This document shows, piece by piece, positions 6,736-58,490 of a DNA stretch of 64,000 nt; positions within the stretch are counted from its first letter, which is position 1; every line of letters begins with the position of its first letter. Both the position numbers and the translations under genes were made by a program. Source of the DNA: Octopus vulgaris (taxonomy: Eukaryota); the NCBI GenBank assembly GCA_951406725.2, contig OX597832.1:70122001-70186000 (forward strand). Direction: 5' to 3'. Below the pieces are notes generated by a model. That model saw only the letters and a program-made list of their open reading frames with translations. It had not been told where the DNA came from and ran no database searches.

Positions 6736-8604
6736 CTAAAGTTGAGGTACATTAATCGTTTGTCGTAGACAAAGAAGTGGCCTGTATTTTGTAATAAAGA
6801 GAGTTTCTTTACTTATTCGTTGTCTCGAGGTTGTATCGTCCCTAAATTGGTAGAGGGGGAAAATCCTGAAGTCTGGTGTTTTGTTGTTGGCGCAAGTATC
6901 TATGTGTTGGCTGAAAGCTATTTTTCTGTTTTGGGGAATTTTTATCTGGGATCTGTGCAGGGCCATTCGTTTACGCAAACTATTTTTTGTTTGGCCTATG
7001 TACTGCTCTTGACACCCGGAGCAGGTTAGTGAGTATATTAGGTTCTCCGAAGCACATGTGAAGTTGCTTTTCACTGTAAATCGCTGTCCCTGTTTGAAGG
7101 AGAACTCTGATCCCTCAATTAGATAGTCGCATATCCCGCAATTGGGTCTTCCACATTTTTTTACTGTCGGCTTCTGTGTTGAAGAGTGAATTCGGGCTTG
7201 TGTTAGGAGACTTTTCATGGATTTAGGCTGTCTCTTGCTTTTTATGATCGTGTGTGTTTGGAGGATTGTGTTCATTCTGTGGTCTTTTTTTAGGAGGGGT
7301 ATGTTGTGGAGGATGGTGCCGAAGGCTTCGTTATTGAGAGGGTTGCGTGTGGAAATGTATGGTAAGGCTTTTGGTCGTAAGTTTTTCTTTGATTTGGGAT
7401 GTCTCAGTTCCTTGATGTTAAGTTGAAGGGCACGTTGAATGCACTTGTCAATAAGTGAAGGTGGATAGTTCCTGGTGATAAGGGTATCTTTTAGTTCTTG
7501 TAGTCGTGTGTATCTGGTGTTTGCGTTAGAGACTATAGTGCATATCCTTTTTGCTAGATTGAAGGGGATATTCATCCTGGTGTGTCTGGGGTGGCATGAA
7601 TTGAATGGAAGATATTGCTTAGAGTCTGTAGGCTTATAATATATGTCTGTTTCTATTACATTATTAGCTTTCTTAATGAGGATATCGAGGAAGGGGAGTT
7701 GTTGCTGCCTATATTCCATCGTGAATTGGATGTTTACGTCCAGTCCGTTTAAAATTTCCTGGAATTCTATGAGTTTTTCTATATTTTTATGCCAAAGAAT
7801 GAAACAGTCATCTAGATATCTCTTCCAGTTGTTTTCTATGTAGATGGAGAAAGGGCTGCCATATCTTTCTAGAACCTTACGATACAGACTGATCTCTAGA
7901 TATCCTATGACTAGGTTGGCAAAGGAGGGGGCCATTCGTGTACCCATCGCAGTCCCCGATTTTTGTCGGTAGAAGTTGTCATTGAAGGCGAAGAAGTTAT
8001 TTTCCAGGATGAATTTAACCCCTTCTATCACGAATTCTTTTTTGATGCGATGTGGTAGTTCGTTGGCGTGATTCTCTAGCCAGAATTGGATTGCCTCTAG
8101 TCCTAGGTTGTGGGGGATATTGGAGTAGAGGTTGACTACATCGAAGGATACCAGTATGGTGTTTTTGTTTATAGTATTCGGTAGGTGATTGAGCATATCC
8201 AAGTCGTCCCTTATATAGATTTTGACATGTTTGAGGAGTGGTTTTAACAGGGTGTCTAAAAAGTTACTGAGGCGGTAGGTTTCGCATGCGGGACCTGCTA
8301 TTATGGGTCTCAATTTGAGGTCATTAGGATTAGGGACTTTAATTATTTTGTCTGTAGCTATCTTGCATGCGTTGCTAATTTTCTCACTTTTGTGTATCTT
8401 AGGTATACCGTAGAATTGGCTGGTTTTACTTGTGAAATTGGTCATATAATCATATTCTTTGTCGGTGAGCCCTGCTTTGTATGGGTTTAACATGGATTTT
8501 AGTTCCCTCATTATTTTTTGTTGACTGTAGTTTTGTGCCTTTTCATAGTATGTTGTGTCTTCCAGCATAGAAAGTACTAAGGTTATGTAAAATGTCGTAT
8601 CCAT
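6736..8604 (-). CDS. PLE reverse transcriptase plus GIY-YIG endonuclease; frame continues upstream to ~9078 through two TGA stops
   Basis: LVSFDVVNLYSNIP, GTAMGTRMAPSFANL, WKRYLDDCF, LPFLDI, YYKPTD; CGRPNCGIC linker; NLIY..C..C...YIGQT..LRKR...H. Confidence 0.92.
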   Translation of the reverse strand: MDTTFYITLVLSMLEDTTYYEKAQNYSQQKIMRELKSMLNPYKAGLTDKEYDYMTNFTSKTSQFYGIPKIHKSEKISNACKIATDKIIKVPNPNDLKLRPIIAGPACETYRLSNFLDTLLKPLLKHVKIYIRDDLDMLNHLPNTINKNTILVSFDVVNLYSNIPHNLGLEAIQFWLENHANELPHRIKKEFVIEGVKFILENNFFAFNDNFYRQKSGTAMGTRMAPSFANLVIGYLEISLYRKVLERYGSPFSIYIENNWKRYLDDCFILWHKNIEKLIEFQEILNGLDVNIQFTMEYRQQQLPFLDILIKKANNVIETDIYYKPTDSKQYLPFNSCHPRHTRMNIPFNLAKRICTIVSNANTRYTRLQELKDTLITRNYPPSLIDKCIQRALQLNIKELRHPKSKKNLRPKALPYISTRNPLNNEAFGTILHNIPLLKKDHRMNTILQTHTIIKSKRQPKSMKSLLTQARIHSSTQKPTVKKCGRPNCGICDYLIEGSEFSFKQGQRFTVKSNFTCASENLIYSLTCSGCQEQYIGQTKNSLRKRMALHRSQIKIPQNRKIAFSQHIDTCANNKTPDFRIFPLYQFRDDTTSRQRISKETLFITKYRPLLCLRQTINVPQL

Positions 8605-9227
8605 TAAGACAACAGCACTCCCTTTATCGGCCTCTTTGATTGTTATTGTTTTATCTTGTTTTCATTTGTTCAACTCAGCCCATTCTTTTTTGCTGAAGTT
8701 TGGTTTGTGTTTTTGTTTGTGCATATGTTGATATGGGTAATTTGATATGTGGTCACAGAAATCATCAAGTGTTTTGTTCTTACCTTTAGATGGGGTGTAG
8801 TTACTCCTATTTCTGACTAACGATTCGTCCTCGTTGTATTTATCGTATAGCTCCTCAGTAAGTCTTAATTTTCTTCAGAATTCTGCGATGTCTTCTTTCA
8901 TTTCATTGTAGTTGGGGTGGTGTGGGGTGGGTGTAAACTTGAGTCCTTTGGAAAGTATGTTTATTTGGTTTGCTGTTAGTTCCTTGTGAGTTAGATTGAT
9001 AATTTTTATTACTTTTGGTTCCTCCTGCTTGTTTGGTGCTATCTTGTGTCTCTGTGTTTGCGTATTGGGTCTAAAAAATGAATGCGGTGGTTGGGACGAT
9101 AGCTATTATATAGTTGTTCTTTGTTGATGTGGGGTCTCCTGTTGTGATTTATGGTCTGTGTTCTTGGAGCAGTATTGAGGAGAGCGTCCCGATATCCCAT
9201 ATTCGGGTGTGGTGTTCTAGGAGGCCT

Positions 9228-9683
9228 TCATTGGTAATCATTGCAAGTGGTGCGGATTTGTTGTGCATGGTTGTTTAACCGGTTGATGGGACGAAGATTT
9301 CGTTGGTAACTCTTTTGGGTGGGGATAAGGTTGCAGTGTCTATGCTGTGGGTGTTGATTTATCCTTTCTCTGCTTGAAGTGGGGGTATTCCTGATATTGT
9401 ATCGCTGGCTGCTTATAGAGTTAGGGTTAGGTCCTGTATTCTTTTTTTGATAGTAGTGAAGGTTCCGATTTTTAGACAGGTGTGTATCGGTGTTTGGGTG
9501 TTGTTTTGGTTTTCTTATTTTCTGGAAAGGGTTGTTGGAGGCGTGCTCTGTTTGAAAGACGGCTTCATAGTCTGAGAACCAAGTGGCGCTTTTCTCCCAG
9601 CGTTGGAGAGATTTTAGTTCTTCTTTTTCACAGTCCTCTTTCCATAGTTTGGAGAACTTCTCTTGATCTGGGCCTTGGGTCAT
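9228..9683 (-). pseudogene. PLE-1 ORF1 fragment (charged helical region plus low-complexity tail)
   Basis: WKEDCEKEELKSLQRWEK and NNPF motifs match the ORF1 pieces of PLE-3 and PLE-4. Confidence 0.7.
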
Positions 9684-10073
9684 TTTGTGAATTTCTTCGT
9701 TGATATCTTCATCGATGGATTTTATTTTCTTCTACCTCTTAACTTTATCACTAATGCTTTTTAGTAAAACACCTACGCAAATTCCATAAACAAACCTCTC
9801 AATAGAAATATTCTCCTGAATTGAACTGCAACTGCTAGCCGTCACTGACCATTCAAAATACAACAATCAAAGCACTTCCAAAATTTTTCACCCCTCTCCT
9901 CATCAGCCCTCTTCTTCTTCTACCCTACCAAGAATTCACAACGACCTCGAACACACAAGTGCAAACAAGGGAGTCAGAGAAAGGCAGAATGCCACTTATA
10001 TCTGAACACTATAAAATATTCCTTTAAAAAAACTTTTCTTCTAATTTTTCTAAATTTAATTATTTACGCGTTA

Positions 10074-10793: not shown

Positions 10794-13049
10794 TTAAACT
10801 GGGTTTCTGACACCCACCTTTTTCGCCACTTCCTTCCATCTTTTTTCATACACACTTCGTGGTAAGGTCTTCTTTTCCAGCCACATTTTGCTCTTCAGAT
10901 GATATCTGAAGTAAGTGAGCAAGCCGGGGCCTGAGACAAAGGATCCTATTGCGACTCCTTCCATTCTTGTATGCCACATGCATTCTTTTACTACTGCAAC
11001 CGTGCAGTGAAAACATGCCTCACCTTCCTTCGAGAGTCCTGTTGGCGGTATCATCTTAATCATAGACTCAGCCGACAGCTGTACTCGTCCCAGATGCGAT
11101 AACACGTGTTCTGCGTAACTTATCAAGTCTGACAACTGCCGACAGTGTACAAAAGCGTGCTGGACGGTTTCATCGTCCAACCCGCATCTTGGACATGTCG
11201 GTGGCACTGAAATTCCGTGCCGCGATAACTTCTCGCGAACAGGTAAAGCATTCCTATAACACTGCCAGGCCAGGGATCTTTGGAAATTATCCAAATACCC
11301 CGTCCTGAAAGTCTTTTTAAACAGGTTGGTAAGCTGGTCTTCGTCGAACCCCAGAGCCCCTCCTAGAACGTCGTCGTTCTTTGCCTCTACAAGCCTGCTA
11401 TAAAATACCGAGGTGGTATTTCCGCTGCCGGCCTTGTCCGCCTTATGGATCAGCGTGAGTGCCCGTCGACACTCCTTTTGCCATAAAGTCAGATTCCGTC
11501 TTTTGATGTAACCGGGTTTAAAATTCACTAAGGAAGCCGGTCTCGGGAAAAATTCCCCTGCCAGCGGACTCCACACCTTATTACCCTCCAGGTGGTGCCA
11601 GAGATGCTTCAGCCTCAACGCATGTCTGCGCATCGTCAACCAAGGCATTCCTAACCCACCCTTTAACGGTTCCTGGCAGCAAACGGAGCGCCTCACAAGT
11701 GGCTTTCCTCCCTTCCACAAAAAGCGGGAAAGGATTCGCTCCAACTTGCTAAGCCATGAATCGGGGCAAGGGACAACGGTCAGGCGGTAAGTGATTACAG
11801 ATGCAATAAACATCTGTACCACCTCCGCCCTTCCTTTCAAGGACAGAAACCTTCCGGACCAGGTCCGTACTACGGCCTCCACCTTGCCCGTCACCTCACT
11901 CCAATTCCTCTCCGTTTGGGAGTCTGGCCCAAAGCAAACTCCTAACAACTTAACAGGACCATCTGTCCAGTGTCCCACGGCACTGGACGATATCGACTTG
12001 CTCCTCCAGGTGCCGAGGCATAAGCCAATCGACTTGTCCTTGTTAACTTTTGCTGCTGCCACCGCCTCGTATCCTCTGATAGCATCTTCTACACAATGTA
12101 GCTGAGCCTCATTGGACACGATCTCATCCGGGTTACTTCCCAGCCTCTCCAACTTTCGCAGCAATGGCTCGAGAGCCAACACGTACAAAAGTGGTGACAA
12201 GGGGCAACCTTGACGAACTGAACATTCGATCGAAAACGGTTCCGTTAGGTAACCGTTTATCTGGACGGTGGACTTGCTGCCGCTATACATTGCGGAGATC
12301 CACCCGCGAAATTCAGGGCCCAGTCCAGCCGCTTCGAGGACCGTCGCCAGGTACTTATGGTCTACCCTATCGAACGCTTTACTTTGGTCTAACTGGACCA
12401 TTACCCCGCCCTTGCCGGTTAATTTACCCACCCTATCTAAGGTGTAGCGTATAAGGTGAAGATTGTCCTGGATCAACCTGCCTGGAATTGCAAATGTCTG
12501 TGCTTTCCCGACAAGTTTCTCCACGACAGTCGTCAACCTTTTTGCCAACACGTTGGCCAAAATCTTTAACTCTACATTAAGTAGAATTATGGGCCTGTAA
12601 TTACTAATGTTATCCCCCTTGCTCGAATCTTTCTGGATTAGCGTCATCACTCCCCGGCTTACAGAACTGGGAATTCTCCCGTTCTGCTGCCAGTTCGTGT
12701 AGACGCCTGCCAGTATTCCCCCGAACAAGTCCGGCATACTTTGATAAAACTCGTAGGGCAGACCATCCAGCCCCGGCGACTTCTCTCCGGCGCATCCGGC
12801 CAGTACCCCCTCTATCTCAGCGGGAGTGATCGCTCCTTCACAGCACTCCACCTCACGCCCCGAGAGCCGTGGTCCGCCGGCTAGGAAGTCCTGTAAGGCC
12901 TTCCCCCGCTCCAGCGAACCACCACCCCCGAACGCGCGGGCGAAATGCTGGTGAAGAAACTTTTGCATCTCCTCCTGTCCATAGATCTTGTGTCCATGTT
13001 CGTCAGTTAAAGACTTGATTGAAGCTTTGTTGCCTCTCTGACTCTCCAC
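10794..13049 (-). pseudogene. LINE ORF2 RT and C-terminal Zn-binding region, catalytic YADD deleted
   Basis: KSPGLDGLPYEFY, NYRPI, DQSKAFDRVDH, VRQGCPLSPLLY, CPRC...ETVQHAFVHC; no YADD after LEPLL. Confidence 0.88.
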
Positions 13050-13112
13050 TCGACGGGCCCATCCGGCAACGTTAATACCTTCTCGTTTCCCTGCGCGTAG
13101 CTTAGCTCTAAC

Positions 13113-14135
13113 TCAGCAACCTTCGTGTTTGGAATTAAGGTGATGGTACAATACCGTCCTTGCCGCCATCACTCCGGATGCAGAGCCAGATTCCATTGCC
13201 TCGTTTAGATTCTTAACTAAATCGTCCTCTATCCTAGACCTATCTAACCTTAGCTGATTGCTAAATCTAATGGACTCTGAACGAATGGCTCTTTTGAGGG
13301 AGTGCCACCAGCTATTATTAATGATGGTGCCACATAATGCCCTCTGTACTAACACCTTAATCCGGGTACGGAAGTCTTCACAATTCAAAATAGACTTGTT
13401 CAGCTTCCAGTACCCGGGTCCCTGTCTATGACACTTATCTAATTGGACCCTACAAGTCACAAATTTGTGATCCGTGTAAGGCACAATGTGAAACTGTGGA
13501 CAACTAAACATATCCTTATCTCTTTTTCTAACGAATATCCTATCTATATACGATCTGCGTGAGCCGTCGTTGTTACTCCACGTCCACTGTGGAACGCTCG
13601 GCTCATCCAGTCGATAACGGTCTACTAGATTAAAGCTCTCTAGTAGACCCTTGAGGCTAGGGTTCCCCTTCCTATTGGTTGAGCCAACACTGTCGACCCG
13701 CGCTTCGAGGAGAGTGGTAAAGTCCCCTACTAAGACTACCGTTTTCGACGTCACTAAAAAGTGCTCCTGATTCCGAAAAAAACCCGACTGCCTATTCTCA
13801 TTCGGAGCGTAGACAGCTACCAACCTGAAGGACTGTTTACTTACGTGGGTCACATCCAGAACGACCAGCCTGCCTTCTGGGTCCAGAAAGACAGTACTTA
13901 CCTGCAAGTCCAAGCGCTTCCTGATAAGGACTGCCACGCCCCTTCCTCTTCCTCGGCTAGGAGAAATACATTTCTCGAAACCATTTAGAAAAGGCGAGAA
14001 CGCTTGGGCCCCGTTCATCTTGGACTCGGTTACAATAGCTACGTCCACTCTGTGTGTCGTGAGGTCGTCCAGGAGACAAATTTGTATCCATTTCGACCCC
14101 ATTCCACGCACATTCACACAACCCAGCTTAGCCAT
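13113..14135 (-). CDS. LINE ORF2 APE endonuclease; same frame as the RT, separated by one TGA
   Basis: NVRG, VYAPN, LVGDF, WTW, SYIDRIF, TDHK, GPGYWKLN motifs. Confidence 0.88.
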   Translation of the reverse strand: MAKLGCVNVRGMGSKWIQICLLDDLTTHRVDVAIVTESKMNGAQAFSPFLNGFEKCISPSRGRGRGVAVLIRKRLDLQVSTVFLDPEGRLVVLDVTHVSKQSFRLVAVYAPNENRQSGFFRNQEHFLVTSKTVVLVGDFTTLLEARVDSVGSTNRKGNPSLKGLLESFNLVDRYRLDEPSVPQWTWSNNDGSRRSYIDRIFVRKRDKDMFSCPQFHIVPYTDHKFVTCRVQLDKCHRQGPGYWKLNKSILNCEDFRTRIKVLVQRALCGTIINNSWWHSLKRAIRSESIRFSNQLRLDRSRIEDDLVKNLNEAMESGSASGVMAARTVLYHHLNSKHEGC

Positions 14136-14159
14136 TGTCGGAGAGAGAGAAAAAAAAAC

Positions 14160-15608
14160 TTACGGTTGGGACAGGGAGCATGACAGTTTAAATCTGCATG
14201 CTTCCCCTTCTTCCTCCCTTGTGGTCGTAGCTGCAGGGCTCTTAACCGGCGTTGCCATCGGGCTCAGGGTAGGTGTGGTTGCCGGGGTTATAGTAAGTTT
14301 ACCCTCCAGTATTTCGTTAGTAACGTCTCTGATAAGGTTATTTTTTAAATGTTCTTGCAGTGTTTTTTCCTTCCTCTCGTCTTCCTTTATTTTTGCAAAA
14401 CGAGTGGTCGACTTAGTGTCTGAAGACTTACTGAATAATTTCAGTTTTGAAAATTTAAAATACTTGAACACTCTTTCGTTTTTCTCGTCGAATGCTACAA
14501 CCTTTTCATTTTTTTTAATCAATTTTTTCCAATCTTGTCTTATGGGGAGGGGCTTGGCGAACTGTGTTCCAATGAATACAGTGCCGTGGGGGTGGGGCTG
14601 GGGAATTTGTTTTGGATGTATCTCTGCGGTGTTTGCTGATTTTTTCTTTGTTTGGGGAGGGGAGTCCAGGATATTTTCTTTTTTTCTTTTGTGTTTCACC
14701 TGTGTAAATTCCATTTGTTCATTTTTATCTTCCGTTTCGATTCCCTTCCTTGTCGCAGTCTTGGGGTCTTTTTCCGCCTTTTCTTTTTCTGTGTTTGAAG
14801 CACTTTGAGGAGGGGCTTCGCTGTTTTTCTTTTTTTTTATGCAGTTCGAGCGGACGTGACCCTTTTCACCACATTTGAAACACCTAAGTCTGCGCCCCTC
14901 CACCGACACTCTCATTGTAATTCCTTCCTCAATAAATACCCTATCGGGTAAGTTTTCTAGCACATTATTTTCTGCTTGAACGAGGAGTTCGAGCGCTTGT
15001 CCCTTCCAGTGTACCTCCTCTTTCCTTTTCATCTGCAGAATTGAGACTTTCTGCTCTACGTCGTGCAGAACCGCCGCTGCTACCCACATTATCTCATATC
15101 CTCTTGGAATGTCTTCCACATATAGTTTCGCAGTTCTTTTTCCCATATATGTAGGTAGTAACATGATGTCCTCACTTTTTAAGGTCATCGATGAAATCTC
15201 TCTTGCCACATCAGCCGAGTCGAAATGTGCTTCAACGGTAGCGCTGCGGGCACCTCGACCGACGTGGCGAATTTTGCTCCACACCGGGGACAAGCACTTC
15301 TCTACTATTTCGTTCTTCACGTCCATTATTTTTTTCTCTTTGTTACTGTAAACCTTGTATACGACTATCTTAGCCTTTATTTCCTGTAATTTCGCTTGCG
15401 GCGGTACCAGTTTAATTTCATTGCCTTCCTTTTTTACCAAGTTCCGGTATTCGAATAACTGTTCAATTTTAAATTCTACTTCCGTTATGTTTCCGCCCAC
15501 TGCGGCCGAAAAAGACTGTTTTTTAACCTCGATATCCTTCTGTTTTCCCATCACGGGAAAGTCGCTCCTCGACGCCAAGTCGCCCCTCGACGCCAAGTCG
15601 AACTCCAT
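14160..15608 (-). CDS. LINE ORF1, gag-like with CCHC zinc knuckle
   Basis: 482-aa ORF immediately upstream of ORF2; CFKCGEKGHVRSNC. Confidence 0.85.
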   Translation of the reverse strand: MEFDLASRGDLASRSDFPVMGKQKDIEVKKQSFSAAVGGNITEVEFKIEQLFEYRNLVKKEGNEIKLVPPQAKLQEIKAKIVVYKVYSNKEKKIMDVKNEIVEKCLSPVWSKIRHVGRGARSATVEAHFDSADVAREISSMTLKSEDIMLLPTYMGKRTAKLYVEDIPRGYEIMWVAAAVLHDVEQKVSILQMKRKEEVHWKGQALELLVQAENNVLENLPDRVFIEEGITMRVSVEGRRLRCFKCGEKGHVRSNCIKKKKNSEAPPQSASNTEKEKAEKDPKTATRKGIETEDKNEQMEFTQVKHKRKKENILDSPPQTKKKSANTAEIHPKQIPQPHPHGTVFIGTQFAKPLPIRQDWKKLIKKNEKVVAFDEKNERVFKYFKFSKLKLFSKSSDTKSTTRFAKIKEDERKEKTLQEHLKNNLIRDVTNEILEGKLTITPATTPTLSPMATPVKSPAATTTREEEGEACRFKLSCSLSQP

Positions 15609-15860
15609 TTCTCAAATTATGAGAACCAATTTTTCAATAAAAAAAAAATTACCCCGAAGGTAATAACAATGTTTATACACAGAATTTTCAGCCCCGTAGG
15701 GCGAAAATTACTGTCACACAACGGACAACTGTTCAATTCACGAGCAACACAAACAACGACGAACAAAAAACGAACTCACTCAACAAAATAGGCAGCTAAC
15801 TTCTCAATACGCAGATGAAAGAGTGGTCTCTAGACGAGTCAAAACACCGGTTTTCGATGA

Positions 15861-18627: not shown

Positions 18628-19430
18628 CATATATACACACACATATACACATATACATATATATATATATATTCACATATACATACATAGATACATATAC
18701 ATATATATAGTTATTCATTTCTATTTCTTTAATTATCTGTGTATTTATTATGTTTGCAGGATCCACTATCATCATATGTTGTGGTGTGTGCTATTGCTCC
18801 ATTCTAGTTTTCTATTCAGGCTAGGTTTATTTTCTATTATATGTGTAGCTTCTGTAATTTGTCTAATTGTTGCATCTGTTCTATGTGTGGACAATATCTT
18901 AATCTCTATGTTATTGATTGATCCCCCGTGTTCCTGTTCGGCGTGTTGGTACAGAATCGATTAGCTCTTACCTTCCTTGAGTTGTCTCCAATGTTTATTC
19001 ACCCGCTCTCCAATGCTTCTTGCTGTTTCCCCTACGTATGTTACTGTCTTGTTACTGCATCGTCCCTCTATACATGTTATACTATAGACCACATTTCTGG
19101 CTTTACAGTTTGTTTGTGGGCTAAATCTACATACAGTGCAATAGTTATCCGTACAGAGGGTTCTACTAAAAGGATAGGTTCTACCAATTATAGATCTGAT
19201 AGGGTTGCCTGGCTTTTCAACAACCTTAATTCTTAGTTTAAGTTTATCTAGGGTCCTTCTAAAGCGGTACGCCAGTTCACCTCCAGGGGTGGTGTCAACG
19301 AACATGATACTCTGGTATTTATGGCTATCATACCAAGAGTTGCCCTTCCCTATTTTCTTTTTTGTCCTTTCTATAGTGTTCCATGACTTGTTCCTATAGA
19401 GTGGGCAAATCCCATTCCTATCATTACATA
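18106..19430 (-). mobile_element. 5'-truncated PLE-2 fragment (RT C-terminus, GIY-YIG, pLTR), a different family
   Basis: ORF 18961-19305: CTDNYCTVC linker, NVVYSITC...YVGETARSIGERVNKH. Confidence 0.75.
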
Positions 19431-19522
19431 ATATATTATGCAGTTCTCAGGTTACAGCCATAAAGAAAGGATCAGAGTATACAAAGGAGCCATGAAAAAA
19501 AGAAATTTGAAAAAAAGAAATT

Positions 19523-35980: not shown

Positions 35981-36032
35981 TGAGCTGATGATAGAAGTGT
36001 CGTTTTGACTAATCTTGAAACGTACGTTCTCA
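35981..36032 (+). ncRNA. Type I hammerhead (family D)
   Basis: TGAG-CTGATGA-tAGA agt GTC gtttt GAC taa TCTt-GAAA-CGTACG-TT-CTCA. Confidence 0.72.
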
Positions 36033-36480
36033 AATAACCTTTGCATTTGATTTTTTGATTTTTTGATGTCCTTACCCCCAAACTTTTGTGAGTTGAGTTA
36101 AGCAAACACTATATGAGAGAGATTTTCTTTAAGTATTAGAAATAGCTTTAAAAAAGTTTTTTAGCTGCTATTTCTAATGAGTTCAGTATGCGGCAAAGTA
36201 ATTTATTTTACTAAGCCCTTTTATATAATATATATATATATATATAAACTTATATATATGTATGTATGTTTGTATGTATAACAACTGGCGAAAAGTTATT
36301 CAACATTTGGATAATTGAACGTAAATACATGTAAAAAACAAACAAGCTTGTGTGTATGTGTCTCTGTCTATATTTCTATGCATATTGTTTAGTGCATATT
36401 ATATGTGTCTGTGTATGCATATGTGTATATCTGCGTGTGTGAGTATGTGTGTGAGTGTATATATATATATATATATATAT

Positions 36481-39400
36481 ACCTTAAATAACAAAATCGA
36501 AGACTCAAATCTACTCGCCCGGGAAAGTAAAAACAGTGAAGACACAACTCGCTACACTGACCAGGTTAGTAATGATTTACAACTGTTATACACAACACTA
36601 AATTCAATTTTCATTAACAAATCCGACAATAAACAACACACACCAAATGAAACACACCAGAACATCATACGCACTCAAATCAACCTAGCAAAAAGAAAAA
36701 TAGGAAACATTTGGAATACAAACCTGCACAATAGAAAACTCGCCTTCTGGAACATGATAAAAGATTCCAACAAAGCAGATATATACGAGGGATGGATGAA
36801 CTCAACACCAATTGTCCTCCCACGTAAATTCCAGATAAAAATAATTCCCAGCGAGCCTGACGGACAGAGAACTATTAGGGAAAGGTCAGCTCTATCCAAT
36901 TTAAGATCAGAAATAGAACTACTAAAACTTAGGGCCTCCACAAATGAGGAAAAATATAAAAGCATCGACGAGGAGATGCACAATGAAATACAAAAACAAA
37001 CAGAGGGACAACCCCTCGAAAATACACTAAATCATTGGAAGGAAACCTAGGAAAAAAGCAACGATTTCTTCCAAAGATATGCGTCAATTTTCAAAAATGA
37101 ATTGGGTACAGATAATCCCTTTCTTAAGAAAATTACAAAAAATAAAAAAGAAAAACCGAACAGCCCACAAACCACCCCCAACTATCCTCCATACACTAGA
37201 AACAGAATTCACCCACAACCAACATTTTCGAACCACGCAAGACTTAACAGGAAACAAGCTGACAGACAATGCGTCTATGAAATAGATTACACCAAAAACA
37301 GAACACACCAACAATATCCTAATACCAGACCCAACCACCACATAACAGCACAAAGCAACACTAGAATAAGAAATACACCAGACACAAGTCGCTACTACCC
37401 CATGAACCAAAATTACTGGTCCCCACCGAACACAAGACAAACGCAAAAAAACACTAAGTCAAGCAACATCCCACATACAAGCAATTCGAAACAAAAATAT
37501 TTCACATACAGAAATTTTACACACACCACAAACGAAAACAACCATAGATTCCCACACACACACAACAATCGAGAGGAAACAATACCACCGTTCCCCCGAA
37601 CCAATATCACACAACCTCACAGACAACTCATACAAACAAAATTACACCCAACATTTTTTAGCCCGGGACCAGAGACACCAGGACACAGGCTGGAACCTAG
37701 TAATAAGGAAAAACCGAAGATAATCAACCTTTCAACCAAACCTCTCTCTAACATAAACATTGACATCCTCTCAAAAGGGCTCAAATTTACGCCAACTCCA
37801 CGCAGAGCCAACCTAAATGATATCAAGGATAATATAACAGAATTTTGCAGAAAATTAAGACTAGCAGAAGCATCAACCAGTTTTAATACTGAAGATGAAT
37901 CACTAGTCAAGAACAAAAGTGAACACATCCCCCACAAAGGAAGAAATAAAGATCTTGACGAATTCTGCAGCCACATTGGGAACTTTCCCTACCATACTAT
38001 ACATAAACAGACAGTTAACTCAAATCTTAACACTACACAATGGAAGGAACTGATAGAACTTCAAAATGATGAAGATATAACCATTAAGGAAGCAGACAAG
38101 GGAAGTGCAGTTGTAATAATGGATACATCATACTATAGAAATCTTGTAATTTCCTTGCTTGATGACAATCAACATTATGAAAAAATCACCAACTACACCC
38201 CGCAAAAAATAATGAAAACTCTATCTTCACTAATTAAAACCCATGAAAAGGAACTAACAACCAAAGAGATTGACTTTCTAACAAACTTTAAATGCAAGCC
38301 TAGCCTCTTCTATGGTCAGTCAAAAATTCATAAAAGCCAAATTATAAATGAAACCTTTAAAAAATCACCAAAGACATACATACACACACCTAACCCGGGG
38401 GACCTAAAACTACGACCCATTGTAGCTGGCCCAAAATTAAGTCTATTTATGGACATTCTCCTGAAACCCTTCCTTAAACATATCGATAGCCATATCAGAG
38501 ATGACTTGAATATGTTAAACCACCTTCCAAAAAAAAGCCAAGGAAGAAACAATCATGGTTTCATTTGATGTAGTTAATTTATATACCAATATACCTCATA
38601 ATTATGGACTAGAGGCAATACAGTTCTGGCTGGACCAATTTCCGGCAGAAATACCAAAAAGGATCAGTAACGAATTCATTACTAAATCGGTTGAATTCAT
38701 CCTACATAATAACCACTTCATGTTTGACAATACATTTTACCGTCAGTAATCCGGAATTGCTATGGGTACAAAGGCAGCACTAGTCATTGCGAACCTAACA
38801 ATGGGCTACCTGGAATAATTATTTACCAGGAATCTTTATCAACCTTTGGAAACCCCCCCTCTCAATACATAAAAGAGAATTGGAAACGATTCCTGGACGA
38901 TTGTTTTATACTCTGGAATGAAAACACAGATAAACTTCTAAAATTCAAAAACCTATTGAACAGCATCAACCCAAATATACAGTTCACAATGCAATACAAC
39001 CAAAAGGAGCTCCCATTCTTAGATATACTAATTAAAAGAATTAACCTTAAAATAGAAACAGACATTTTTACAAAGCCACAGACGCCAAACAATACCTACT
39101 TTTTGATTCATGCCACCCAAGACACACTAAAACAAACATCCCCTTCAACCTTGCAAGAAGGATATGCACAATAGTGTCAACAAAATACAAGGAACTTTAG
39201 ACTACAATAACTCAAAAACACCCTAATTGACAGGCACTACCCAGCTCAACTCATAGAGGATGGGATCAGACGTGCAACAGAAATCGACATAGAAACTTTG
39301 AGAAAAGTTCAACATAACAACACACCTTACCGAAAATACTGCCTTACATATCCACATACAACCCCAGAAACAAAGAAGCCTTCACCATCATCACCCAGAA

Positions 39401-40275
39401 TTTACCAATACTTCATAAGGACCCCAAATTAAAGGAAATTCTAAACATACATAAAATCATTAAAAGCTACAAACAACCTAAATCACTTAAAAAGACTCTC
39501 ACAAAGGCAAAATTGCTTCCTGAAATTACGGATACAAAAGTAAAAAGATGTGGTAGACCAAACTGTGCAACATGCCCAAACCTTCTAGAAGGATCAGAAT
39601 TCCTCTTCAAAGAGGGACAAAAATTCAAGATCAAATCTAATTTTACTTGTGCCTCTGAAAACATAATTTATGTCATAAGATGCTCGGGCTGCCACCAAAA
39701 CTACGTGGGGTCCACGGGACTATCACTCAGACGTAGATGCTCACTTCATCGACAACAGATTGCATTCCCAGAATACAGAATGATACCCTTTAGTGAGCAT
39801 ATTGAGAAATGCGTAAAGCAACTACTACCACAGTTTTTAATCTTTCCATTTTATCAATGTGCTAATTAGACTAAACAAGGAAACATTCTTCATTGAAAAA
39901 TATAAGCCCAAACTTAACCACTCTAACATTCTTATACAGAGAAACTCACCCCATTAAAAAAAAGGCAAGAAATATAAAGCGATTATCTCCCTTACACCGG
40001 AAGAAATCACTTATTACCTCCCCTTACCTGGAACTCTTCTTTACACTTCTTAACGAAATCATAACAATGTTTTGTGAAATTTGAAAAGTTAAACACGAAA
40101 CCGGTAATATCTTCAAAAACTATGTCAATGTATGAAAAAAATTTATAACATTCTTCTGACATAATGACTCAAATATATATTTTTTAACCTTTTAAAACAA
40201 GCATTCTGTAGTATTTTTCACTTTTTACTATTTTCTATATATTCAACCACGTCCTTTCACACACCAACTTTCTCA

Positions 40276-40278
<3 letters not shown>
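36481..40278 (+). mobile_element. Penelope-like element PLE-3 (Neptune-like), decayed, near full length
   Basis: ORF1 piece 36481-37050; RT N-terminus IINLS..ILSKGLKFTPTP, IKEADKGSAVV; FDVVNLY; RFLDDCF near 38890; GIY-YIG 39513-39869; (TA)n flanks. Confidence 0.9.
40077..40111 (+). ncRNA. Minimal hammerhead (U3-A8) in the PLE-3 pLTR, weak stems
   Basis: AT-TTGAAAA-GT taaac AC-GAAA-CCGG-TA-AT, at the expected 3' pLTR position. Confidence 0.55.
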
Positions 40279-40344
<66 letters not shown>

Positions 40345-40500
40345 CACAATCAAGGAATGGCCATAATAGGCCATTCACCCACTAGAAATAACAGCCAAAG
40401 CTTCAACCGCAAAATAACATTAATTCCGCAAACCAGGAGAAAATTAAAAAAAAACATTTACCCTGTAATTTCTTATACGATGCACCGTTTCATCTATATA

Positions 40501-40566
<66 letters not shown>

Positions 40567-40651
40567 TTATAATATATATATATATATATATATTTATAAA
40601 AAAGAAGTTTGAAAAGGCCACTATATAAGATAAATTTTAATTTTCTTAGAA

Positions 40652-40699
40652 ATTTTACATGTTTCGGTTCTTTTTGAAAAAACGAACCTTATCAAAAAT
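40652..40699 (-). ncRNA. Minimal hammerhead (U3-A8) in the PLE-4 3' pLTR
   Basis: ATTT-TTGATAA-GGTTC...GAACC-GAAA-CATG-TA-AAAT on the minus strand. Confidence 0.75.
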
Positions 40700-43600
40700 A
40701 TTTTAAAAAGTTAAGTGTAGTAAAAAAGTTCATAATTGTTTCTTACTGGTCTCAACAGTATCCACGTGGTGGTGTTTTGTGGGAGTAGGCATAATAGCTG
40801 TAAATTTAAAGTTAAGTGTAATAAAAAAGTTCATAATTGTTTCTCAACAGACTCCACGTGGTTGATTTTAGCTGTCTTATGTGTCCGAATGGTCAGTGAC
40901 TGAAATGGCAGCAGCAGCAGTGACTGTTGATCGTAGTAGTAGTAACCGTGGTGGTGATGATAGTTGGGGTTGCAGCAGCTCATTGGTTGTAGCAGCTTAG
41001 CTGTGGCAGTAGCAGCAGCGGCAGCAGTGGAGGACTGTTGATCGTAGTAGTAATAGTAGTGACCATGGTGGTTGTAGTAGTAGTAATAGTAGCAGCAGTC
41101 GTTGTGATCGTGGTGGTAATGGTAGAATTCCATTTTTCTTTTCGGAAGACCAATGTATTGTTTTAATGTTCCTGGCCCAGGGTGTTCAAATTTGGTCCGA
41201 ATTTTCTAATGAAATAAAGTTCTTTATTTTGGCGTTGAGTGAAGGTTACGCGGTCGCTGAATCTGTAAAGTGGGCAAGTTGTGAATTTGGGATTTTTATT
41301 TGAAGCACATATATCTATGTGTCCGCTGACTGGTATTTTCCTGTATTCAGGATTTCTAATTTGGGATTTATGCACCGCCATCCTTCTTCGTAAGCTGTTT
41401 TTTGTATAGCCTATATACTGCCTATTGCACCCTGTTGTGCATGTTAAGACGTAAATTAAGTTTTCTTATGCACAGGTGAAGTTTGTTCTGATGGTAAACT
41501 GATGGCCTTGTTCTAATGTGATATCTGAACCTTCTACCAAAATTCCGCAGTTGGGCTTTCCACATTTTCTAACTGCTGGTTTTGTGGTTGTTGTTGAGTG
41601 CAGTTTAGCTTGGGTTAAAATACTTTTAAAGGATTTTGGTTGCCGTTTACTTTTAATGATGGTGTGTGTGTCGTGGATTCGGTTTATCTTTGGGTCTCCC
41701 TTGACTAAGGCTGTGCTTTGTAGTATGGTGTTGAAGGCCTCATTGTTAAGTGGGTTGTGTGTAGAGATGTAGGGTAGGGTTTTTAATTTTTCTTTCTTTT
41801 TTGGCTTTGTTTGCCTCAGGTCTTCTATACTTAATTTAAGTGCTCGTTGGATTGCACTGTCTATTAGGGGCTGTGGATAATTTCTATTTATGAGTGTAGT
41901 TCTGAGTTCCTGGAGACGTGTTTTTCGGGTGTTTGATATTATGGTGCAGATCCTTCTGGCTAAACTGAAAGGGACATTTATTCTAGTGTGTCTTGGGTGG
42001 CATGACTCAAAGGGTAGGTACTGCTTGGAGTCTGTCGGTTTATAATAGATATCTGTCTCTACTTTGTTGCCGACTTTCTTAATGAGGATGTCTAAAAATG
42101 GCAATTTTTCTTCGTTATGATCTATCGTGAACTGAATATTTTCATTTATTCCATTTAATAGTATTCCTGAAGTGTTTCTATACTTTCATCCCAGAGGATG
42201 AAGCAGTCGTCGAGATATCTTTTCCAGTTGTTCTGAATATAGGTGGAGAAAGTGTTTCCATATTTTTTAGAGTATTTTCTGGTAGAGTATTATCTCGAGG
42301 TATCCCATCACTAGGTTGGCAAAAGAAGGCGCAGTACGCGTACCCATCGCTGTTCCAGATCGCTGTCTGTAGAAATTATTATCAAAAATAAAGTAATTGT
42401 TTTCTAAAATAAATCTAAGTCCGTCTATTATGAGTTCTTTATTTATGCGAGTTGGGAGTTCAAAGGAGTAGTTGTTTAGCCAGAAAGTGATCGCATCTAT
42501 TCCTAGGGTGTGAGGGATGTCAGAATAAAGGTTACGTCGAAGGATACTAGTAGGGCTTTCTCATTGACTGTTTTGAGGAGGTGGTTAAGCATGTATATAT
42601 CGTCTCTTACGTAGCTTTTGATGTGCTTTAGGAAAGGTTTAAGAAGTGTGTCTAAGAAGTTACTGAGGCGGTGAGTTTCACATGCTGGTCCTGCTATTAT
42701 CGGTCTAAGTTTAAGATCATTTGGTGAAGAGATTTTGATGAGTATGTCGGTAGATGTCTTGCATGTTTCACTAATTATTTGGCTTTTGTGGACTTTAGGG
42801 ATACTGTAGAATAAACTTGATTTGCACTAAAAGTTAGTGATGTAATCGTACTCCTTGTCCGTGAGTCCTTCTCGGTATGTGTTGATTAATGTCCTGAGGT
42901 TATACATTATTTTTGGTGGATTATAATGTTGGGCCCTTTCATAATATGTTTCATCTCCTAATATGGATAGTACTAAATTTTTATAATCACTTGTGTTCAT
43001 TAAAACTACCGCGTTGCCCTTATCTGCCTCCTTAATTGTTATTGTTTTGTCTTCTCTTAGTTTGATGAGGTCATTCCATTCTCTTTTGTTAAAGTTTTGG
43101 CTGTATTTTTGTATTTTGGTGAATTGAAAAGGTAAATTATTTTATTTATGTAGTTACAATAGCGGCCTAAGGCTTTATTCTTTCGCTTGGTAGGGGTGTA
43201 ATCGCTGTTGTTTCTAGCTCTTGATTCATCATCTATTTGTTTGGCATGAAATTCCTCGGCACGTCTTAGTTTCCTACAAAATTCCGAAATATCGTCTTTA
43301 ATTTCATAGTAATTTGAGCGTTGTGAGGTTGGTGTAAATTTAAGTCCTTTGGAAAGTATGCTTATTTCGGTAGGTGTAAGTTCTTTATTTGAGAGATTGA
43401 TTATTTTAATTACCTGTGGTTTCTTTTGTTTGTCCGTTGCCATCGTGTATCCCTGTTCCTGTGTGTTAGGTCTAAAAAATGGTTGGTGTAGTTATGCTTA
43501 AAACTACCGTTGATCTGTCTCCTGTTGTTATAATTTTCAGAGTGGGTTTGTGGTGCCCTGTTTTGTAGTGTGTTTTTGTACCTCGTATTCTTAGTGTATC

Positions 43601-44783
43601 AGGTATATTGTGTTGGTAGTTATTGGTAGTAGTGTGTTTGTTGTTTGTTAGGTTTGTATGGTTGGTTCCTAGGGTAGAGGTTTCGTGGTTGAATCTTAGT
43701 TTGGTTATGTGGATTGTAGTTCATAGAATTGTGTGTTGTATCCCTATGGTTCTTGAAATGATGTGGTGGGTCCCTGTAAGTGTTTTGGGGTTGGTGTAGG
43801 TAGCGTGGGGTGCGTTTTAAATGTTTCTTTCTGGTGTGGAGTGTATTTAGATTTCTTGGTGGTTGTTCCGTTCTGTTAGTATTTGATTTTGTTTTACTTA
43901 ATTTTATGAAGGAGTTGTTGGATATGTTTATTTTTGAAGTTGGTTTCATAATTCCAAGACCAGTTGGCGCACTTTTCCCATCGTTGGAGGGACTTTAGTT
44001 CCTCTTTTTCACATTCTTCTTTCCATAGTGTAAGTAATGTTTCAGTATTGATGCCATCTCTTAGTCTGATGACTTCTTCGTTGATTTCTTCATCTATGGT
44101 TTTTACTTTTTCTTCATTCGTCTTAGCTCGCAATTTAAGTAGTTTAATTTCCATCTTCATTTTTTCTAATGACATTTTTTTCTCTAAGTCTTCTTTGTTC
44201 TTCTGATTCTTCTAGGATGGGCTTTATTAGTAATTTGTGGGGTATGATTTGGAGTGTTGAGTTAAGCCACTTTTGGTAAATCTCTGCTTTATTCTGATTT
44301 TGTATCATTTTCCAAAAAGCGAATTTTCTGTTTCGCTGTAGTTTTCTCCATTGGGGAAGGACTTAGTTCTTTATTTGTAATGTTGAAGTTATTAGGTTCT
44401 TCCCATGTGGTCCTTTTTTTGTTGCTCTTGTTTTGTAAAGTTTGTAAAGAACGTCTTCATTGTGTCGCATAGATTTCCAAGGTTCTCATACATTTCCGAG
44501 GGTGTTTTCTTCGTTTCGGTTTCTTCATTATATTTTGTAGAAGGTCGAGATGTTGAGTTGAGTTTGTTTAAAACTGCTGTTAGCTTTGAGTTTATGCATT
44601 TCAATTCTTTCAGTATCTCTTCATTTATTGAGATGATGTTGTTGATGTCTGTTTTAGTAGGCTTTTTCGGGAGCTCGTACGTGATATGATATTTAAGTGT
44701 AGATCGTATACGAGTGGGTATATATTTATAAAAAAGAAGTTTGAAAACGCCACTATATAAGATACATTTTAATTTTCTTAGAA

Positions 44784-44828
44784 GTTTTACATGTTTCGGT
44801 TCTTGAAAAAACGAACCTTATCAAAAAT
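44784..44828 (-). ncRNA. Minimal hammerhead (U3-A8) in the PLE-4 5' pLTR
   Basis: Same motif as 40652-40699 with a shorter loop 2. Confidence 0.72.
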
Positions 44829-45544
44829 ATTTTAAAAAGTTAAGTGTAATAAAAAAGTTCATAATTGTTTCTTGCTGGTCTCAACAGACTCCATGTGGTT
44901 GTTTTTAGCTGTCTTATGTGTCCGAATGGTCAGTGGCTGAAATGGCAGTAGCAGCAGCAGCAGTGGAGGACTGTTGATCGTAGTAGTAATAGTAGTGACC
45001 ATGGTGGTTGTAGTAGTAGTAATAGTAGCAGCAGTCGTAGTGACCGTGGTGGTAGTGGTAGAATTCCATTTTTCTTTTCGGAAGACCAATGTATTGTTTT
45101 AATGTTCTTGGCCCAGGTTGTTCACACTTGGTCCGAATTTTCTAATGAAATAAAGTTCTTTATTTTGGCGTTGAGTGAAGATTACGCGGTCACTGAATTT
45201 GTAAAGTGAGCAAATTGTGAATTTGCGATTTTTATTTGAAGCACATCTATCTATGTGTCCGCTGACTGGTATTTTTCTGTATTCAGGATTTCTAATTTGG
45301 GATTTATGCATCGGCATCCTTTTACGTAAGCTGTTTTTTGTATGGCCTATATACTGCCTATTGCACCCTGCGCATGTTAAGACGTACATTTTCTGATGCA
45401 CAGGTGAAGTTTGCTCTGATGGAAAATTGATGGCCTTGTTCTAATGTGATATCTGAACCTTCTAGTGGCGTTTTCAAACTTCTTTTTTATAAATATATAA
45501 GATCTACATATATATCTAATATATAAGATCTACACTTATTTTAA

Positions 45545-45576
<32 letters not shown>

Positions 45577-45794
45577 TCTCTCTCTCTTTTACTTGTTTCA
45601 GTCATTTGACTGCGGCCATGTGGGAGCACCGCCTTTAATCGAGCAAATCGACCCCGGGACTTATTCTTTTGTAAGCCCAGTACTTAATCTATCGGGGTCT
45701 CTTTTGCCGAACCGCTAAGTAACGGGGACATAAACACACCAGCATCGGTTGTCAAGCAATGCTAGGGGGACAAACACAGACACAAACACACACA

Positions 45795-45838
<44 letters not shown>

Positions 45839-46010
45839 CATATATACGACAGGCTTCTTTCAGTTTCCATCTACCAAATCCACTCACAAGGCTTTGGTCG
45901 GCCCGAGGCTATAGTAGAAGACACTTGCTCAAGGTGCCATGCAGTGGGACTGAACCCGGAACCATGTGGTTGGTAAAAAATATACTTACCACACAGCCAC
46001 TTCTGCGCCT
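45577..46010 (-). mobile_element. tRNA-derived SINE, full length
   Basis: Reverse complement of the family sequence. Confidence 0.88.
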
Positions 46011-56301: not shown

Positions 56302-57283
56302 CTATCCATATGGTATATTTATGTTTGACATTTTAAATTTGGCTGCGTGCCTGCATAAGTTCATCGGCTCACTTCTTTGATTCAAAGAATTATTGTCTTT
56401 GAATAAAATGTAGAGTTTTTCTAACAGGCAAAGATTGCATTTGAAATTATTCTTGTGTGCTCCATGCCTGTATGTTGCCGCTCTGTCCAGAATGCTCCAT
56501 GTCACGTTGAAAGGTGGGGTTTCCTTTTCTTTTAGTTCCCAGACATATTTTGCTAGGCTGGTCCTCTTCCTATTTTCTGGGTATCTAAATGAATTTTTAT
56601 GCGAATAAAATCGCGTTTTAAACGAGTTTTCTGAAGCCCCTGTATATGTCTTGTATTCCGATGAGCCTTCTATTTGTACCTTCGCTCTATAAACTACTCC
56701 TTTTACTAGACATTTCCCTTCTAACGGGCAGGAGGGTTCATTTTTGAAATTGCATTTCTTAATGGGCTCGGCACCATGTTTAATCTCAATCATATTCCTA
56801 TTATGCTAGCTAATGTAAGAGGCGAAATTTCTGCAACAAGAATAGCTAACCTTCAGGGTTCTTCTGTTAAATATCCTATAGAATATATGGTCCTGCTTAA
56901 AATGCCTAGAGACTAATTTAAAAAATTCCTTACCTATATTAGTCTTTACGGCCAAATTGAAAGCCGGGTTGAACCACAAAACTTTCCTGGTCCTAGTTCT
57001 TCGCGCAGCATTATTATCAGCATTAAGATTTATAGATGCAGGTTTATATAGGGATGACGGCCTTATAGCCACCCATAATTTAAACGGCCATGAATCAGAT
57101 AGACTTAGGAAGGACCTTATTGCTTTCTTTCAAAGGATGGGCTTACGGGTTATAATAGATACTAACCTGAATAGTGTAGATTTTTTAGACGTAAATTTTA
57201 ATGCAAGGTCGGATAGATTTAAACCTTTCCGTAAGCCCAATGAAAAGCTATCGTATATTAGCAAAGATTCGAACCATCCGCAG
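56302..57283 (-). mobile_element. PLE-5 fragment with 5' inversion (EN on minus, RT core on plus)
   Basis: CPLEGKCL..VVY...YTG...FKTRFYSH...CNLCLLEK...CRH on minus; GLYRDDGL, VDFLDV, DSNHP on plus from ~56996. Confidence 0.82.
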
Positions 57284-58490
57284 TAGAGCAACGAAACTTG
57301 GCACAGTTATTAGACTTTTTCTACATAGGAACCACCCAGAGTTACGCATTTCCACATCGTTTGATGCAGTTCTGGAGACCGTTTTTGTAGAAGACCCCAG
57401 TTTGGTCCTCCAAACACGACGTGACTTCAGAAATCAAGGCTACATCATCTGGGAAACGCTTTCCTTTGAAAAACAAGTTCGTGGCTGGGAAGAGGTGACA
57501 ATCAGAGGGTGCAAGGTCAGGAGAGTAGGGGGATGGGGGAGGAGTTCATAGCCGCACGCCTGTGCTTCTGATCTAGTGACACGCGAGTTGTGGACCGGAG
57601 CGTTTTCCTGCAGGAGGAGGATGCCTTTGCTGATCTTGCCCCGCCTCTTGATTTTGATAGCTTCTCTTAATTTCCTCAAAAGTGAAGCATAATAGGCTCC
57701 TGTAATTGTGGTACCCTTTGCCAGGAAATCTGTCATCACTACTCAGTCCTGGTCCCAGAAGACTGTGAGCATGACCTTGCCAGCGGAGGGCTGGACCCTT
57801 GCCTTCTTTGGAGGAGGTGAGTCACGGTGCTTCCACTGCATTGGTCTCTGGATCATAGTGATGGACCCAGGTTTCATCCTGTGTAATCAGTCTTTTGAAA
57901 AATGTTGACTCATCTTCTTGGCACATCTCCAAATTCATCCTCGAGCACTCGACGCGTTCTTGCTTCTGGAAATGTGTGAGCAACCTGGGAATCCATCTGG
58001 CAGACACCTTTTTCAAATGCAAATGGTCATGAATGATAGTTTCCACAGACCCGGTACTAATCTTGACCTCATGGGCTATTTGGCGAATAGTTATGCGTCG
58101 ATCTTCCAAAATGGCAGCCTCAACTTGACGGACAGATGCCTCATCAATGGCAGAAGGGGGGGGACCAGATATGGGAGCTGTTTCCACAGAGTTCCAACCA
58201 TGTTTGAATTCACGATGCCAGCGTTCTACAAGGTCATATGATGGGGCATCATCACCATAAGTTACTTTCATTTCATCAAAAGTCTCCCGTGGTGTGCGTC
58301 CTTTCAAATACAAAAAACCGGATCACTGCTCGACACTCAACAGGCTCCATTTCACACTTGACTCAGTTCAAACACCTGCAAATCAGAAACCACAATTAGT
58401 ATCTATAGAGATATAAATAATTGCACATGCAAAATTGCAGCTAGATCAAACAACTGCAAGTGGGTCAAGGGCATCACTTATTGAACGCTT
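57284..58490 (-). mobile_element. Mariner transposon, frameshifted transposase pseudogene
   Basis: HTH region, RWIPRLLT, TQDETWVHHYDPE, LLQENAPVH, LLPHPP in ORFs 57822-58313 and 57440-57739. Confidence 0.88.

Follow-up and report, generated by a model that had tools for sequence, protein, structure and literature searches.

A two-ORF, endonuclease-bearing Penelope-like element of Octopus vulgaris with a conserved slippery heptamer ahead of its reverse transcriptase

In a stretch of 64,000 nucleotides of Octopus vulgaris DNA (assembly GCA_951406725.2, contig OX597832.1, positions 70,122,001 to 70,186,000 of the forward strand; hereafter the window) we have examined one of three decayed copies of a Penelope-like element (PLE), which is by its features a dead, endonuclease-bearing (EN+) PLE of the Neptune/Nematis type with two open reading frames (ORFs). 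The assignment to that type is likewise by features, the reverse transcriptase (RT) tree containing no named reference elements. Sequence comparison establishes that the two ORFs overlap in the -1 register, that a slip site is conserved family-wide in the overlap, and that ORF1 is under selection; we infer that ORF1 and the RT are probably linked by -1 ribosomal frameshifting. Under this scheme ribosomes would translate ORF1 and most would terminate shortly past the heptamer, yielding an abundant structural protein in which a coiled coil precedes a three-helix core and a disordered, basic tail, and a minority would slip by -1 on U UUU UUA to make an ORF1-RT-GIY-YIG fusion; the frequency of slipping would set a ratio like that of gag to gag-pol.

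EN+ PLEs are the sister group of telomerase RT. For the question of how their ribonucleoproteins assemble, the conserved family of ORF1 proteins, hundreds strong, and its probable switch of the gag-pol type offer a testable protein together with a junction about 60 nt long. Annotation of the RT only overlooks one third of such an element, and the ORF1s have been filed as host or symbiont 'hypothetical proteins'.

The slippery heptamer and its register

All three copies in the window carry CAT TTT TTA G, translated H-F-L in the ORF1 frame and F-F in the RT frame one base back, and TTTTTTA occurs exactly once per element body on the coding strand in each, on a strand that is about 21% T. An earlier note on this DNA had placed the heptamer at 43473-43479 on the minus strand, with TAG, TAA and TAA closing the RT frame directly upstream, and we confirm both. 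Its statement that the heptamer lies in the ORF1 frame cannot be read from the window by itself because ORF1 is broken in the copy under study, with frame shifts near 44415, 44175, 43925 and 43628-43588 and a stop near 44364; the sister copies nonetheless share the register. Related copies in contigs from four public runs (contig sequences only, their RNA origin guessed) have indels at 44415, 44175, 43924 and 43588-43628, the sites of the ORF1 frame changes, and none of the indels listed in them falls at the heptamer, which two long records span. For the stretch in the window itself, no RNA record was listed.

An X XXY YYZ heptamer is present in register within the ORF overlap in all four family DNA loci. 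The -1 frame is stop-free from the heptamer to RT motif N1 in all seven loci in which N1 was located, contains no Met over that interval in five of them, and is closed 3-12 codons upstream of the heptamer in seven of eight loci, the exception being the sister copy whose heptamer lies at 37.6 kb. At the protein level, F-L occurs among the final 45 residues in 60 of the 71 homologues of at least 340 aa, compared with 2 and 5 for control windows; removal of a repeat chimera (P0107) from the counts leaves 60 of 70, in tails that are otherwise unalignable. Because a T ahead of TTT TTA demands an NNT codon, the preceding residue should not be K, E, Q, M or W, and it is so in none of the 60 (background 20%); elsewhere these residues precede F-L in 32 of 62 cases in the ORF1 body and in 52 of 577 in RTs. 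The residue after F-L is GNN-encoded in 41 of the 60. Two ORF1/RT protein pairs can be read as dual coding in the -1 register, one for 11 codons and the other for 7, and further fits of 5 codons were found once per register.

The same arrangement is seen in an intact tandem element (L001), in which ORF1 extends from an ATG at 194 to a stop at 1375 with T TTT TTA at 1330, and a 784-codon ORF in the -1 frame encodes the RT, the Cys linker and GIY-YIG with no AUG ahead of the first RT motif. L001, with two overlapping ORFs, and homologues lacking any fusion thus fail the single-ORF description that Craig et al. 2021 give of canonical EN+ PLEs in the available part of their text (PMC8557442). The earlier note had asked whether ORF1 might prove to be the ordinary N-terminus of single-ORF Neptune proteins, the offset then being a product of decay. 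The 37.6-kb copy, in which the two are in frame, and a distant single-ORF element would fit such a reading, but the offset exists in the intact L001, which refutes it, and we regard it as almost certainly wrong. No fused ORF1-RT protein was found: a weak search gave none among 4922 longer ORF1 candidates scored, the best 150 ORF1 matches being 57-592 aa long (full-length ones mostly 340-470 aa), and the ORF1 profile matched none of the 120 best RT homologues (507-803 aa, with an upper limit of 1372). The N-terminal domain of the distant single-ORF type aligned to the ORF1 core with an hhalign probability of 0.2%, in a comparison underpowered by its 5 template rows, and a search to enlarge that set gave 1 protein.

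That distant relative (L008) has one ORF of 1006 aa in which a domain with an HH..FL..C...IP.GL-type motif is fused with the RT. Four other distant EN+ PLEs (L004:3710, L010:3667, L017:3758, L007:810), in contaminant contigs of metagenome-assembled genomes (MAGs), are seemingly two-ORF; they have 26-31% best-segment RT identity and a differing ORF1 with a motif of that same type. Their in-register heptamers directly past the opening of the RT frame, G GGT TTT, G GAT TTT (twice) and T TTT TTA, were chosen by eye and are leads only, G GAT TTT being non-canonical; G_GGU_UUU ranks among the shiftiest heptamers on mammalian ribosomes in the accessible text of PMC5009743.

The ORF1 protein family

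Searches with a 188-aa ORF1 piece from the 36.5-kb copy recovered 448 homologue clusters (50% level, E<=0.001), and one member of the family is annotated in Pinctada imbricata. Pfam gave no consistent family for the ORF1 pieces in the window or for 67 homologues, in keeping with the earlier note, which could assign ORF1 to no known domain. The limit of 44604 that it set for ORF1 is too short, with an alignment to the homologue P0001 beginning at about 44631 and the start lying near 44673. Its shared motifs are present, RK.AFW and EI.LLKLRA in the copy under study and the 36.5-kb copy, and WKE.CEKEELKSLQRWEK in the copy under study and the 9.7-kb copy. ORF1 has heptad periodicity as proposed, but the main segment of this kind is an N-terminal helix that the note had omitted (heptad score 0.73 against a shuffled mean of 0.48). 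Scores of at least 0.7 are found at the N-termini of 67% of 70 homologues and in 3% of shuffles, and a coiled-coil check of these N-termini returned GCN4-type matches, which are weak.

AlphaFold models of two homologues have an N-terminal helix, a confident all-helical core (block pLDDT 90-99) and a disordered tail. The tail carries a net positive charge in 68 of 70 homologues, and 22 of the 70 contain a short motif of the (S/T/R)-Y-A-(D/E)-(A/V) type in the disordered tail. Foldseek searches of the models against PDB and viral structures returned nothing at E<=0.001, VIA-align gave generic three-helix bundles only (best Z 9.1, rmsd 6.2, 124 aligned), and the ESM Atlas held no usable match for P0015 and a best of 0.84, under the lead level, for P0288; these model-based searches would establish neither a new nor a known fold. 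Neither Cys nor His reaches the majority consensus in alignments of 67 and 101 rows, and no CCHC zinc knuckle of the gag type was matched by Pfam among the 67 homologues. The suggestion of an RNA chaperone or gag-like protein agrees with the coiled coil, helical core and basic tail; a CCHC motif of the gag type is not conserved. From its architecture, the ORF1 protein would probably have an oligomeric RNA-packaging or chaperone role.

Between window copies c3 and c2, ORF1 differences fall chiefly at third codon positions, with 31, 29 and 59 at the three positions of 96 codons; between c3 and c1 the dN/dS, from 61 codons, is 0.22, against 0.12 for the start of the RT, these values coming from local alignments with dS near saturation. 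A lack of purifying selection had been set beforehand as grounds for rejecting ORF1; a dN/dS of about 0.2 supports its being a separate ORF under such selection.

No relatives were found in viral contigs, the ORF1 profile matched none of 44 RT loci in GTDB contigs, and genome searches gave nothing in 5 and one marginal match (E 8e-4) among 380. RT relatives occur in Saccostrea and in records labelled as bivalve gill symbionts, the latter probably being host DNA. PLE RTs under bacterial symbiont or MAG names (P0154, P0164, P0169, P0225, P0229, P0256 and L002-L045) are most likely host contamination.

Stimulation of the proposed slip and alternative routes to the RT

Several points weigh against -1 frameshifting as the link between the ORFs. 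It is deduced here from sequence, and from four family DNA loci of which three are decayed. F-L is unenriched among matches of 200-339 aa (15 vs 12 of 47), and the selection estimate carries the saturation given above. The RT frame of the 37.6-kb copy stays open over at least 100 codons upstream and is also that of the ORF1 core, and a Met ahead of N1 is called in more than half of the full-length RTs. Downstream folding beyond that of shuffles was absent in eight loci (z -1.5 to +1.0), by a method that cannot model pseudoknots. In the spacing of the ORF1 stop considered below, the stop comes more than 10 codons past F-L in 37 of 60 homologues and 20 codons past it in the window copies; moreover the ten-codon state clusters by descent, with 19 of 25 in one clade and 7 changes overall, and the 23 cases are therefore non-independent.

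As to the 37.6-kb copy, positions 36484-38568 (+) hold the ORF1 core and the RT in one frame with a single TAG at 37048-37050, and both the heptamer and the 0-frame tail are retained; its one-frame state is probably due to an indel in the tail.

Since no RNA stimulator was detected, we have considered a roadblock formed by colliding ribosomes. The ORF1 stop is never fewer than 10 codons past F-L (0/60) and is exactly 10 codons past it in 23 of 60, where about 5.5 are expected from the later rate. The ten-codon clade includes P0002, which is closely related to the window copies, and the end branches of the clade are of about 0.4-1.4 changes per site. Speculatively, a ribosome terminating at an ORF1 stop ten codons downstream would hold the next ribosome on the slip site, and the larger 80S ribosome would suit a ten-codon spacer. 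In synthetic E. coli reporters, a stop-stalled ribosome raises -1 slippage of the trailing ribosome with a peak at a 9-codon spacer, and, as here, a slippery heptad lies about one ribosome length ahead of a stop; no RNA structure is required there, and none was detected here (Smith et al. 2019, PMC6815119, in the part of the text available); that system is engineered and bacterial, whereas the present one is natural and eukaryotic, has a 10-codon spacer, and would be collision-stimulated only by conjecture. We put forward tentatively, as a possibility that we rate well below even, that a large two-ORF PLE clade with a new family of ORF1 structural proteins carries a natural eukaryotic -1 signal without an RNA stimulator, driven by collision at the ten-codon stop. 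RT output would then depend on ribosome load, and the ten-codon rule would be a natural case of a mechanism that we found described only in engineered bacterial reporters.

The RT could instead be made from an AUG of its own, by termination-reinitiation at an ATGA/TAATG overlap or by internal or leaky initiation, with the heptamer secondary or the two routes parallel. The earlier note had set aside the RT-frame ATG at 43443 as not conserved, which is literally so, the other window copies having ATA and CTG at this position, but misleading. The base that gives ATA in one sister copy also creates a premature stop in the ORF1 of that copy. Met stands at about this position in all four of the database RTs that form a group with the two other window copies (100% SH-aLRT, in a quick tree that leaves out the broken RT of the copy under study and in which a mis-framed row, L003, was disregarded). 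The ATG is thus probably ancestral in its subfamily and decayed in the other copies, so that the argument from its non-conservation is weak and AUG initiation stays a rival, and for this subfamily a serious one. It coincides with the modal position of the ORF1 stop; P0215 reads FF-x10-M-N, P0247 pairs with P0053 and has Met at codon 11, and a start ahead of N1 is called in 55 of 97 RTs, mostly 5-14 residues upstream. Set against this are the Met-free interval between heptamer and N1 in five of seven loci, intact L001 among them, the ATG at codon 5 in P0038/P0200, which gives no overlap with a stop at codon 11, and, weakly, as prokaryotic gene calls, the 42 of 97 RTs called from N1 or later. 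An AUG route also leaves the constraint on F-L and on the NNT codon unexplained, and on balance we consider it unlikely.

It is more doubtful still that TTTTTTAG is a 3' splice acceptor and that the RT is translated from a spliced RNA. A G follows the heptamer in four of four family DNA loci, the GNN-encoded residues noted above fit an acceptor, and conserved introns exist in PLEs according to the Fig. 1 legend of Craig et al. 2021 (PMC8557442); but 13 of 60 next residues cannot start with G or AG, a polypyrimidine tract would need no F-L in a fixed frame, and no joint at the site is among those listed for the four contig sets, in which the two records spanning the heptamer bridge it (contigs of guessed RNA status).

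Slippage by RNA polymerase, adding a base on the T run and so fusing the ORFs, we judge slightly less probable again. That no RNA stimulator was found at the slip site would favor it, as would P0095, an ORF1 homologue with an altered T run that continues via F-F-F to the N-terminal part of the RT. However, the run comprises no more than 6 T, the indels listed in related contigs include none at the site, and reverse transcription of slipped transcripts would produce copies with both ORFs in frame, yet no fused protein is recorded. P0095 also resembles the predicted transframe product of ribosomal frameshifting.

Related systems and other features of the window

The elements described here resemble Neptune/Nematis EN+ PLEs in the RT, the C-terminal GIY-YIG, the CX2-5CXXC linker and the tandem or pseudo-LTR structure, but those are described as single-ORF in the text available to us (PMC8557442), whereas here an ORF1 of about 400 aa overlaps the RT in the -1 frame. 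According to the legend of Fig. 1 in the same paper, a frameshift with a pseudoknot may set a PLE ORF1 apart; the clades are unnamed, so that Neptune may already be among those described. The accessible parts of other reports describe a short, non-overlapping ORF1 in killifish Neptune with no mention of frameshifting (PMC12602865) and Neptune-like elements carrying esterases (PMC5408684). EN- Athena/Terminon PLEs of bdelloid rotifers have accessory coiled-coil ORFs, a likeness by description (PMC6431247 and PMC5408684, in part); they have no endonuclease and insert at telomeres, whereas the present elements have GIY-YIG, sit among microsatellites and give no evidence of a pseudoknot.

An ORF1-frameshift layout is known in Athena. 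LINE-1 ORF1p also combines a coiled coil with a basic region and is encoded upstream of the RT ORF; the ORF1 described here differs in a predicted core that is all-helical, with no RRM-type sheet, and in being joined to the RT by a slip site. The HIV-1 gag-pol site has the identical U UUU UUA and, after it, a conserved codon that starts with G (PMC4373837, in the portion available), and in both systems a structural ORF precedes an enzyme ORF; the present element, which is not a virus, has no detected stem-loop and its ORF1 no gag motifs.

In the literature searched, outside Repbase/Dfam, Arkhipova 2017 (msx159) and the drawing of Craig 2021 Fig. 1, we found no account of such an ORF1 family, nor of EN+ PLEs with a U UUU UUA site. 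The available portions of PMC3846280, PMC6431247, PMC5718144 and a 2026 preprint contain nothing on an ORF1-RT junction, and 'Penelope' is absent from the searched text of a frameshifting review. What appears to be new is thus an EN+ PLE with two ORFs, probably frameshift-linked, and an unassigned ORF1 family.

The window is microsatellite-rich, and its three PLE copies, each with a C-terminal endonuclease, are matched by Pfam RVT_1 and GIY-YIG (Table 1). ORF2 of the copy under study is 69% identical in DNA sequence to the copy at 6.7-9.1 kb. The CX2-5CXXC linker between RT and EN is found in 119 of 120 RT homologues, in L001 and in the 6.7-kb copy, and is truncated in the copy under study. 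A 533-nt duplicate of the element's 3' end lies upstream of this copy, and L001 is a tandem of period 3699, both as expected of the pseudo-LTR or partial tandem structure. No hammerhead ribozyme is among the Rfam matches in L001 or in window positions 36000-46000, although minimal variants may escape such a search. In all three window copies the ORF1 stop is 20 codons past F-L; one of them has a premature stop in addition.

Table 1. Coordinates of the Penelope-like element copies and their features in the window.
Feature	Position	Strand	Remarks
Penelope-like copy	6736-9731	-	decayed, sister copy
Penelope-like copy	36484-39869	+	decayed, sister copy
Penelope-like copy under study	41163-~44673	-	decayed
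ORF1, decayed, ~420 codons	43410..44673	-	stop TAA 43412-43410, 20 codons past F-L
N-terminal coiled-coil helix of ORF1 (NEEILKELK...), predicted	44560..44640	-	tblastn with P0001; profile match E=3e-5
Conserved helical core of ORF1 (RK.AFW ... WKEECEKEE), predicted	43927..44385	-	profile matches E=1e-17, 8e-25; AlphaFold homologue models
N/R/Q/P/H/T-rich disordered tail of ORF1, predicted	43480..43926	-	homologue pLDDT mostly <50
Three stops TAG/TAA/TAA closing RT (-1) frame upstream of heptamer	43492..43506	-	43506-43504, 43500-43498, 43494-43492
Slippery heptamer T TTT TTA, then G	43473..43479	-	F-L kept in 60/70 homologues
Same heptamer, sister copy 6736-9731	9072..9078	-	
Same heptamer, sister copy 36484-39869	37654..37660	+	
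RT-frame ATG	43441..43443	-	11th codon past slip site, overlaps ORF1 Trp codon
ORF2: RT, Cys linker and GIY-YIG endonuclease, decayed	41163..43479	-	GIY-YIG E=4.6e-7
Upstream duplicate of element's 3' end (pseudo-LTR / partial tandem)	44943..45464	-	93% identical to 41004-41536

Other mobile elements are present in the window. A nearly intact two-ORF non-LTR element at 10794-15611 (-), judged from translations, has an ORF1 with a zinc knuckle, and a single stop at 13113-13115 divides its AP endonuclease and RT. Pieces of two more, differing GIY-YIG PLE types lie at 56302-57286 and 18961-19446 (-), and a decayed mariner-like transposase, also judged from its translation, at 57440-58322 (-).

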